This document shows positions 7,557 through 8,857 of a stretch of DNA of 8,857 nt, in pieces. Position 1 is the first letter of the stretch, and each line of letters opens with the position of its first letter. Position numbers and translations under genes: made by a program. The DNA is taken from positions 1 through 8,857 of the IMG/VR virus record IMGVR_UViG_2534681772_000005. One strand, written 5' to 3'. The notes below the pieces were generated by a model. The model was not told the DNA's origin and searched no databases. It saw nothing but the letters and a program-made list of their open reading frames with translations. The DNA is from a virus (taxonomy: Duplodnaviria > Heunggongvirae > Uroviricota > Caudoviricetes).

Positions 7557-8477
7557 TTAGCTCCGTTTCAGTTTAGTTGCGCCAGGAAATGCCTTGGCGA
7601 AAGAATTGGTTGCAGCAGAATCCATCCCCATACCATGAGATGGTTTGCGAACTACCGCTTTCTGGCTGATAGCAAATTCAACCATCGATTTAAGTGCTGA
7701 AGGATGAACGCCTTTATGTTCGGCACCGATTGAATCAAGAGCAAAGCGATAAATAGACTCTGCGGAATCCATAGCGACCAGACTCACATCACCAACCAAA
7801 GCACGAACACATTCTCGAGCCTCATTGGCTTGACGGATACGCCCCATCACATTCTCTTCAGCTTTTCGAATCAATGCGGCATCCATAGCTGCTTTATTCT
7901 CATCATCGTCTTCATCCTCGGCAGTCTTTTTATCCTTGCCGTCATCATCTTCGTCTTCCGCTTCTTTGCGGTCACGATCGCGATCCTTTCGCTCACGTTC
8001 TTCACGCTCTTTTAGTTCATCCTCTTCACGTTTCAGACGCTCTGCTTCTGACTCATTATCTCTCTCAGCCTGAGTGGCTTCGTCTTCAACAACCTTTTGC
8101 ACTTTCTTTTCCACTTCTTCTGGCTTCTCATCACTTGCCAGCATCGGCGTGATAACTGCCATCAACTTTTTAGTAAGTTCTGACATTGATTTCATTCCTG
8201 TTGGTATTGAATCCCCGACAACAACGTCGGATCCGGCTCTTCCCTCTGTTACGAGAGCAACGTGGTTCCCGACGATATCGCGCATTACACCATCGTATGG
8301 CTGGCCTTCATGCACGCCGGGGGTCATGTCAGCTACATATCTGTAGGCCGACGAAAGTTCTTTCTTCTCGTCTGTCTCGATTCCAGCGATAGAATCTGCG
8401 TCCCATACGACAAGCGAGTTCTTGAGATAAGTCCCGTCAAACTCAGCATCAGTACCAGTAGAACCAACCACAGCCAT
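7557..8477 (-). CDS. Putative head scaffolding/maturation protein with an acidic charged region; possibly 5'-truncated by the IS
   Basis: 306-aa ORF with an extremely charged middle (residues ~115-196, KREEDELKEREERERKDRDRDRKEAEDEDDDGKDKKTAEDEDDDENK) typical of scaffold proteins. First ATG at 8477 has only a weak RBS. The frame stays open upstream through the IS junction at 8506/8507 until a stop at 8534..8532. Confidence 0.5.
   Translation of the reverse strand: MAVVGSTGTDAEFDGTYLKNSLVVWDADSIAGIETDEKKELSSAYRYVADMTPGVHEGQPYDGVMRDIVGNHVALVTEGRAGSDVVVGDSIPTGMKSMSELTKKLMAVITPMLASDEKPEEVEKKVQKVVEDEATQAERDNESEAERLKREEDELKEREERERKDRDRDRKEAEDEDDDGKDKKTAEDEDDDENKAAMDAALIRKAEENVMGRIRQANEARECVRALVGDVSLVAMDSAESIYRFALDSIGAEHKGVHPSALKSMVEFAISQKAVVRKPSHGMGMDSAATNSFAKAFPGATKLKRS
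7890..8135 (-). repeat. Low-complexity acidic/charged coding tract (E/D/K/R-rich, RD and ER dipeptide runs) within the scaffold-like gene
   Basis: Translation of this segment is about 80 residues of almost pure E/D/K/R; the DNA shows reiterated GAAGA/GATGA/CGNGA units. Confidence 0.6.
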
Positions 8478-8506
8478 CTTCTGAGGGTCTGCAGCAGTAA
8501 CCGGAA

Positions 8507-8857
8507 TGAACCGCCCCGGGAATCCTGGAGACTAAACTCCCTGAGAAAGAGGTAAACAGGATGACTAAAAATACTCGTTTTTCCCCCGAAGTCCGTCAGA
8601 GGGCGATTCGTATGGTTCTGGAAAGTCAGGGCGAATATGACTCACAGTGGGCGGCAATTTGTTCCATTGCCCCAAAGATTGACTGTACACCGGAGACTCT
8701 GCGTGTCTGGGTACGCCAGCATGAGCGGGATACCGGAGGCGGTGATGGCGGGCTCACCACCGCTGAACGTCAGCGTCTGAAAGAGCTGGAACGTGAAAAT
8801 CGTGAACTGCGCCGCAGTAACGATATCCTTCGCCAGGCTTCCGCTTATTTTGCGAAG
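8507..8857 (+). mobile_element. IS3-family insertion sequence (IS629/IS1203-like), partial: left terminal inverted repeat plus 5' part of orfA; element continues beyond the window end
   Basis: 8507 begins TGAACCGCCCCGGGAATCCTGGAGACTAAACTCC..; orfA ATG at 8561. It is the inverted counterpart of 1..337, with a single difference (C at 8539 versus the equivalent of T at 305). Confidence 0.85.
8561..8857 (+). CDS. IS3-family transposase OrfA (DNA-binding subunit), N-terminal 99 codons, partial (runs off the window)
   Basis: Translation [99 protein letters not shown]; identical over the shared length to the minus-strand copy at 1..283. Confidence 0.85.

Follow-up and report, generated by a model that had tools for sequence, protein, structure and literature searches.

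The window, i.e. the whole 8857-bp stretch of DNA analysed here, is a complete draft contig (AIHG01000044.1) of the E. coli assembly GCA_000250335.2. It holds a block of prophage late genes set between two inverted copies of the same insertion sequence (IS) end, at 1-337 and 8507-8843. Both copies are IS left ends that face inward, and they differ from each other at a single base (305 versus 8539). By BLAST, the native block matches the prophage of TW10590 (L011 21850-30020) at 100.000% identity over 8171 nt, from 338 to 8508. The features of the window are as follows.

1..337, minus strand: left end of a second, inverted IS copy, one base different from the right-hand copy.
309..1259, minus strand: chimeric open reading frame of SLT (tape-measure-like) codons and IS codons, from alignment and the ORF list.
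338..8506, minus strand: prophage late-gene block of 8.17 kb, from identity to TW10590 and gene content.
8477..7557, minus strand: 306-codon remnant reading frame, corresponding to codons 103-408 of a head-assembly gene (408 codons) of the DUF2213/Pa193-gp24 type, from Pfam, PHROG and alignment.
8184..8186, minus strand: conserved internal ATG (Met200), a candidate nested start, with a Shine-Dalgarno-like AGGA at 8196-8199.
8478..8506, minus strand: 29 nt of native coding sequence, from the second base of codon 93 to the end of codon 102, by alignment to TW10590 and SC407.
8504..8506, read on the minus (gene) strand: TTC, the right-hand copy of a 3-bp target-site duplication, equal to TW10590 L011 21852-21854.
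8532..8534, minus strand: TAG that closes the remnant frame upstream, inside the IS end, from in-frame translation.
8507..8857, plus strand: left end of an IS629/IS1203-type element of the IS3 family, with TGAACCGCCCCGGG as its terminal inverted repeat and codons 1-99 of orfA, from identity to the TW10590 IS copy.

The block comprises the DUF2213 gene remnant, cement protein, major capsid and head-tail connector genes, and then the tail terminator, sheath and tube genes and the 5′ half of an SLT/tape-measure-like gene. The last of these is broken by the left-hand IS copy, and the chimeric frame at 309..1259 consists of the first 307 codons of a 604-codon SLT gene plus nine IS-derived codons (VNRPGNPGD, then a stop). 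In the TW10590 prophage, which is located at tRNA-Arg/yfdC, the early, Q and lysis regions are lambdoid; the structural module is E217/Pa193-like and of myovirus type. A phage collection yielded relatives of the block at 65-70% identity and no close sequenced phage, and Rfam gave no match to the window.

The intact form of the interrupted head gene is found in TW10590 and 19 other complete genomes, where it is 1227 nt long and encodes 408 amino acids. In TW10590 it occupies L001 5724-6950, and the native sequence of the window begins at L001 nt 6001, which is gene nucleotide 278; the gene thus starts 277 nt upstream of the point where the native sequence of the window begins. Domain coverage demonstrates the same truncation. 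Residues 3-90 of the window frame match positions 81-167 of the 167-position Pfam profile DUF2213 (PF09979, now Pa193_gp24) with 101 bits (cut-off 22), and an intact relative covers positions 1-167 with 169.8 bits. Profile positions 1-80, corresponding to intact residues 25-104, are missing from the window frame, which is consequently a fragment and not a complete member of the family. PHROG 2229 aligns from position 94 to 427 of 428. What remains in the frame is the second half of the DUF2213 domain, together with the acidic helical linker and the helical part at the C-terminus. Its position in the head module is that of the family: the gene lies after portal and MuF and before cement and major capsid, with the upstream neighbours seen in TW10590 and in the contigs L013, L016 and L017, and the downstream neighbours in the window itself. 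As judged from homology, the 306-codon frame is a 5′-truncated remnant of a known gene family and not a new kind of feature.

Homologues agree with this. In all 114 homologue cluster representatives with coverage of the whole frame, 79-128 residues precede the equivalent of Met103, and none starts there. Met103 itself gives way to E, R or L in homologues that are further removed, while His92, which lies immediately ahead of the break, is invariant. The sequence-only reading had proposed a 5′ truncation, and this proved correct: the frame begins at an internal methionine, residue 103 of 408. An exact-protein look-up of the 306-residue product is uninformative, as the product is found elsewhere only in one chimeric metagenome contig.

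The nucleotides just upstream of ATG 8477 can be read in the same light. The 29 native bases translate as IPVTAADPQK, which is residues 93-102 of the intact protein, and are not a 5′ untranslated region. The open frame continues through one split codon (A from the IS, TT native) and eight whole IS codons to the TAG at 8534..8532, exactly as had been described from the letters. It should be pointed out that an open frame of about 18 codons has a chance probability of roughly 0.4 and is unremarkable, so the truncation call rests on homology and not on the open frame. The weak ribosome-binding site noted at ATG 8477 is also borne out by calculation, with 0 kcal/mol of anti-Shine-Dalgarno pairing in the 20 nt upstream, against -3.8 to -10.8 for the other starts in the block. 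That every other gene has a GGAG-type site is a slight overstatement; most have GGAG, GGGAG or GAGG, and weaker sites occur at the tail terminator start at 4326 (CAGGTA), the sheath gene (GGTGGA) and the tube gene (AAGGGA). The absence of a ribosome-binding site and the open upstream frame are both accounted for because Met103 is internal and not a native start.

The only sequence match in the PDB, found by a family profile search (E = 3e-15), is gp24 of phage Pa193 (PDB 9B40, chain G). Its authors term it a putative scaffolding protein, and they modelled only residues 286-326, which form a helix-turn-helix pentamer beneath the vertices of the capsid (PDB 9B40). The label ‘scaffold-like’ given earlier to the window gene therefore suits its closest solved relative. 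The two proteins belong to the same Pfam family, both genes stand just ahead of cement and major capsid genes, and both proteins share a layout of an N-terminal DUF2213 domain, a charged helical region and C-terminal helices, as well as the motifs PL(L/I)xEH, (E/D)LS(S/L)(A/G)Y and GNH(V/I)ALV. Kinship outside the domain is distant (408 residues in the intact E. coli protein, 478 in gp24), and the window copy, unlike gp24, is without residues 1-102. PHROGs 2229, 12864, 530 and 3778 carry the label ‘head maturation protease’. In the intact E. coli protein a globular domain at the N-terminus is followed by a long acidic stretch of helix and then by C-terminal helices, and this layout, together with its motifs PLLNEH, ELSSAY and GNHVALV, is consistent with a putative protease-scaffold fusion. 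No protease was among the matches of the PDB sequence search, a comparison with a Mu-like protease by hhalign was insignificant (probability 1.7%), and NCBIfam gave low-complexity noise only. For the intact protein, AlphaFold2 with an alignment of 31 sequences gave a poor model (mean pLDDT 50).

Nested protease and scaffold genes are known from lambda (C/Nu3) and Mu (I/Z). The gene described here resembles these in that a single head gene combines a protease-like domain at the N-terminus with a scaffold-like part at the C-terminus, and in a conserved internal methionine with a Shine-Dalgarno-like element. Met200 is conserved across both linker types and in Pa193 gp24. In the window the AGGA lies 9 nt upstream of its ATG, and the best pairing window ends 8 nt upstream. 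An AGGA or GGAG is kept 8-9 nt before Met200 in three diverged genes despite differing residues (TG versus LE), and in these three lineages the pairing at Met200, modest at -4.3 to -5.6 kcal/mol, is the best or near-best among the in-frame methionine codons. Gene callers also start at Met200 on fragmentary contigs (cluster P0284, 55 members). One might tentatively suppose that the family makes two products in one frame, a full-length protein with protease-like and scaffold parts and a nested scaffold-only product from Met200, although we consider this rather doubtful.

If such a product exists, the remnant might still be partly useful, with a candidate nested scaffold cistron of 209 codons that is intact in the window and could be made if late transcription crosses the IS. 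This appears improbable. The conserved methionine, the retained element and the gene-caller starts speak for it, but they come with modest pairing energies and from three lineages only, and no promoter was found near the remnant. In addition, the IS is also present in the SLT/tape-measure-like gene, so that virions could not be completed anyway.

Of the right-hand element the window contains 351 nt, and the features of a full-length element given here are those of the TW10590 copy. These 351 nt match an IS copy of the TW10590 prophage (L011 2234-2584) at 100% identity. They contain the start of the transposase gene orfA (8561..8857, plus strand; PF01527 match), which points away from the phage gene remnant. 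The full TW10590 copy is 1310 bp in length, has a GGG duplication at its flanks and is annotated with a programmed frameshift and an AL1L pseudoknot; it is 95.0% identical, gap-free over 1310 bp, to an IS1203 copy of O157:H7. The termini are of the TG...CA type, with the left end TGAACCGCCCCGGGAATCC in the window and the right end TGAACCGCCCCGGGTTTCC in TW10590 and in the contig L013 described below. IS629 is reported to be located mostly in prophages and to generate target duplications of 3-4 bp (PMC3271280). The element in the window resembles IS629/IS1203 of O157:H7 (PMC3271280) in its length of 1310 bp, TG...CA ends and TGAACCGCCCCGGG repeat, and also in orfA with HTH_Tnp_1, the programmed frameshift (-1) in full copies, the 3-bp duplications and the preference for prophages. 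It differs from the O157 IS1203 as an isoform at about 95% identity, residing in another prophage and in another E. coli background. A second IS3-family element of the TW10590 prophage (L011 39253-40481) was considered as the source of a deletion and rejected, as it has no nucleotide similarity to the IS end of the window.

At the junction, the IS end GGGGCGGTTCA stops at 8507 and is followed on the gene strand by TTCCGG (GGTTCA/TTCCGG). Because the final two bases of the IS, CA, agree with the native sequence as well, the BLAST identity extends to 8508. Since the contig stops inside a repeated IS, the window alone cannot tell an insertion from a deletion. A pattern search of IMG/VR for the expected reciprocal junction found one contig, L013 (IMGVR_UViG_2534681772_000006, 5832 nt). 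In this contig gene nucleotides 1-280, ending in ACACATTC, are joined to the IS right end; the junction reads GAACACATTC followed by TGAACCGCCCCGGGTTTCC, with the longer left flank CTTAACGAACACATTC. Thus the left-hand copy of TTC adjoins the IS right end in L013, and the right-hand copy adjoins the IS left end in the window, which by itself holds one TTC, its pairing with L013 being the more probable arrangement and not a directly read one. L013 further carries gp49, terS, terL, portal and MuF at 99.96% identity to TW10590 and ends in another IS left end. The partner of this second L013 junction is L014, from the same IMG genome as L013; it shares an AGC duplication with L013 and carries Q and the lysis cassette. 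Duplications of the same IS are therefore 3 bp in each case: TTC (window and L013), AGC (L013 and L014) and GGG (TW10590).

L013 and L014 are listed under IMG taxon 2534681772 and the window under GCA_000250335.2, and we infer that all three come from the same genome. The basis for this is the matching duplication, the identical IS arms, a T33 variant shared in another IS arm and the near-100% identity to the same reference prophage. Against it, the fusion frame of L013 is absent from the protein collection, and a search with the N-terminal fragment did not find the fusion product. The pairing of window and L013 is supported because the IS in the DUF2213 gene matches the TW10590 IS exactly in both of its arms, while the neighbouring upstream IS has diverged in both. 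Taken together, the junctions indicate a simple insertion that splits the gene, and not a deletion.

The best explanation, to which we assign a probability of about 0.88, is thus ordinary gene inactivation by insertion of an IS629/IS1203-type element into a 408-codon head-assembly gene, with duplication of TTC. A 1310-bp element of the IS3 family would have entered at codon 93/94 of the DUF2213/Pa193 gp24 gene, a putative prohead protease-scaffold gene, in a lambdoid prophage with a myovirus-type structural module, and would have duplicated the 3-bp target TTC. The window would then represent the downstream product only, i.e. the IS left end followed by gene nucleotides 278-1227, in which the 306-codon frame opens at the first in-frame ATG past the break, Met103, presumably never a start codon. 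As the first half of its DUF2213 domain is gone, and with it the invariant His92, the remnant is probably non-functional and the gene inactivated. The 5′ 280 nt and the packaging genes would lie on the other side of the IS and would not have been deleted.

An IS-mediated deletion that removed the packaging genes and the late promoter along with the gene's 5′ end would have left an 8.2-kb orphan block between inverted IS copies, and the form of the window does recall this: inverted IS ends flank the block with their left ends inward, nothing lies upstream within the window, and the link to L013 is an indirect one. For the left-hand junction, in the SLT gene, IMG/VR likewise yielded no partner. 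A deletion would leave no partner, yet L013 has gene nucleotides 1-280 joined to the IS right end with an exact TTC overlap. The distribution of TW10590-type and diverged arms between the two neighbouring IS copies also agrees with the proposed pairing. Deletion is accordingly an unlikely account. The sequence-only reading had taken the packaging genes and the late promoter to be missing, but the window is a contig that ends in a repeated IS and does not show their loss; terS, terL, portal and MuF stand beside the reciprocal TTC junction in L013.

An artefact of assembly, in which IS and gene were joined chimerically at a repeat, is very improbable. The contig does start and end in a multi-copy IS, and there is no closed genome with the junction, which was present in none of 5426 complete E. 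coli genomes and in none of the GTDB representatives; for the right junction, no IMG/VR contig matched. However, the contig extends for 351 nt of IS on one side of the junction and for 8.2 kb of unique sequence on the other, and a random misjoin would not give a separate contig with the exact reciprocal junction and a 3-bp duplication.

That the IS lies in an intergenic region beside an intact gene truly starting at ATG 8477 is refuted by the homologue comparison, even though 8477 is the first ATG past the IS and the frame is long: half of the Pfam domain is absent, no full-coverage representative starts there, the identical TW10590 gene runs further upstream, and Met103 is neither conserved nor preceded by a ribosome-binding site.

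The insertion also bears on transcription of the late genes. The gene lacks its own promoter in the intact prophage, where a terminator-like hairpin is located 28 nt upstream of the gene start; it therefore presumably depends on the Q-dependent late transcript. A crude scan found no sigma-70-like promoter on either strand of 7400-8857, and a lenient one gave a single weak 8-of-12 match. Read-through from the IS, suggested earlier as a source of expression, is unlikely, given that orfA points away and no outward sigma-70-like promoter was found. According to the insertion model, the phage late promoter region, downstream of Q, would be located further upstream behind one more IS copy, and the downstream late genes would be transcribable only by Q-modified polymerase that reads the IS copies antisense. 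Expression of the block would thus need a phage late transcript that crosses two IS copies in the antisense direction.

The prophage carries this IS at least three times: once separating the lysis genes from gp49/terS, once inside the DUF2213 gene and once inside the SLT gene. With half of a conserved domain gone from a head gene, it is almost certainly defective. As a separate observation, the search with the N-terminal fragment yielded contigs of five further public samples that end 1-4 nt from the insertion site and carry no IS sequence, and these breaks could reflect recurrent insertion or a recombination hot spot at the conserved NEH/IP codons.

The remnants have entered public annotation as seemingly normal proteins. 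WP_280109789.1 (316 aa) is the product of the DUF2213 gene remnant, with an ATT start codon that takes its first base from the IS, and WP_000586131.1 is the tape-measure/IS chimera. The case also illustrates that a contig ending in a repeated IS can mimic a deletion though the event is a simple insertion. IS elements of the IS629/IS1203 type are already well known to inactivate E. coli prophages, and the finding has little significance beyond annotation hygiene. Should the two-product reading of the family be true, the IS would have destroyed the N-terminal function only and would have left a candidate scaffold cistron intact.

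Two features belong to the interrupted DUF2213 head-assembly gene and its surroundings, one inside the reading frame and one 5′ of the native start:

Window 8184–8199, minus strand, and the equivalent positions in L016 and L017, two loci with diverged homologues: conserved internal Met200 with an upstream AGGA/GGAG element, from homologue comparison.
L001 (intact TW10590 prophage) 5587–5695: gap between the MuF and DUF2213 genes, holding a small ORF and a hairpin; the same region is present in L013, the contig with the reciprocal junction.

AGGA or GGAG lies 8–9 nt upstream of Met200 in three diverged homologues, despite differing residues, and the homologue cluster P0284 (55 members) holds fragments where gene callers begin at this methionine. 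From these sequence comparisons, Met200 is a possible start of a nested scaffold protein. The MuF–DUF2213 gap contains an unannotated, hydrophobic ORF of 30 codons (MIEVLWSLGLVLIFGCLMIALLKIAMSKRK), and at the matching position in L016 a gene of 33 aa has been called. The gap also holds a terminator-like hairpin (GGCCGCTACTGCGGC) with a T-run behind it, 28 nt upstream of the native ATG.

Five unrelated public samples, with at least three DNA alleles among them, yielded contigs that break near the IS site without carrying IS sequence. Four of these contigs end (L006–L009) and one starts (L010) at gene nt 276–279, i.e. within 1–4 nt of the insertion site. Insertion could recur at this site, or the breaks could mark a mosaic boundary where co-resident prophages meet.

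Further actual or probable insertions, and one acyltransferase gene, are present in the window and on other contigs:

Window 309–1259, minus strand: fragment of an SLT-domain, tape-measure-like gene, interrupted behind codon 307 by another copy of the IS (1–337), which lies in inverted orientation.
L006 1310–6898, related prophage of GCA_012664965.1: Mu-like segment of 5.6 kb inside terL, with Mor, Mu protease and gpT genes.
L014 (contig with Q and lysis genes) 6918–7941: extra DNA of about 1 kb that breaks the early region, at about 10035 of L011 (TW10590).
L011 42076–43095, outside the window: acyltransferase gene adjoining intS/tRNA-Arg in the intact TW10590 prophage.

The terL flanks of the Mu-like segment share a 5-nt overlap, which matches the expectation for a Mu-type 5-bp target duplication. 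The extra DNA in L014 is probably one more insertion in this same prophage, already full of IS copies. An acyltransferase gene at this place recalls O-antigen-modifying (serotype-converting) phages.

The two IS arms of the window differ solely at IS position 33 (T versus C; window 305 versus 8539). The T variant recurs in the IS arm of L013 (5427–5763), and being common to both contigs, it links them. A partner of the SLT-gene IS junction was not found in IMG/VR. The SLT-domain gene, 604 codons long when intact in TW10590, continues here for 9 codons inside the IS (VNRPGNPGD*), and the chimeric ORF is annotated as a hypothetical protein (WP_000586131.1). In the public annotation of AIHG01000044.1, the DUF2213 remnant is a 316-aa ‘DUF2213 domain-containing protein’ (WP_280109789.1) with an ATT start codon (window 8505–8507), the A of which is the final IS base; this call is an annotation artefact. 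In public protein sets, E. coli genes that are truncated and unrelated to one another, including fimD, trbC and sbmA, are fused in hundreds of cases to the 53-codon read-through tail (LNRPGFPGECFICELRLPDHRF...) that comes off the IS right end, and the tail is a repeated origin of chimeric ‘proteins’ in these sets.
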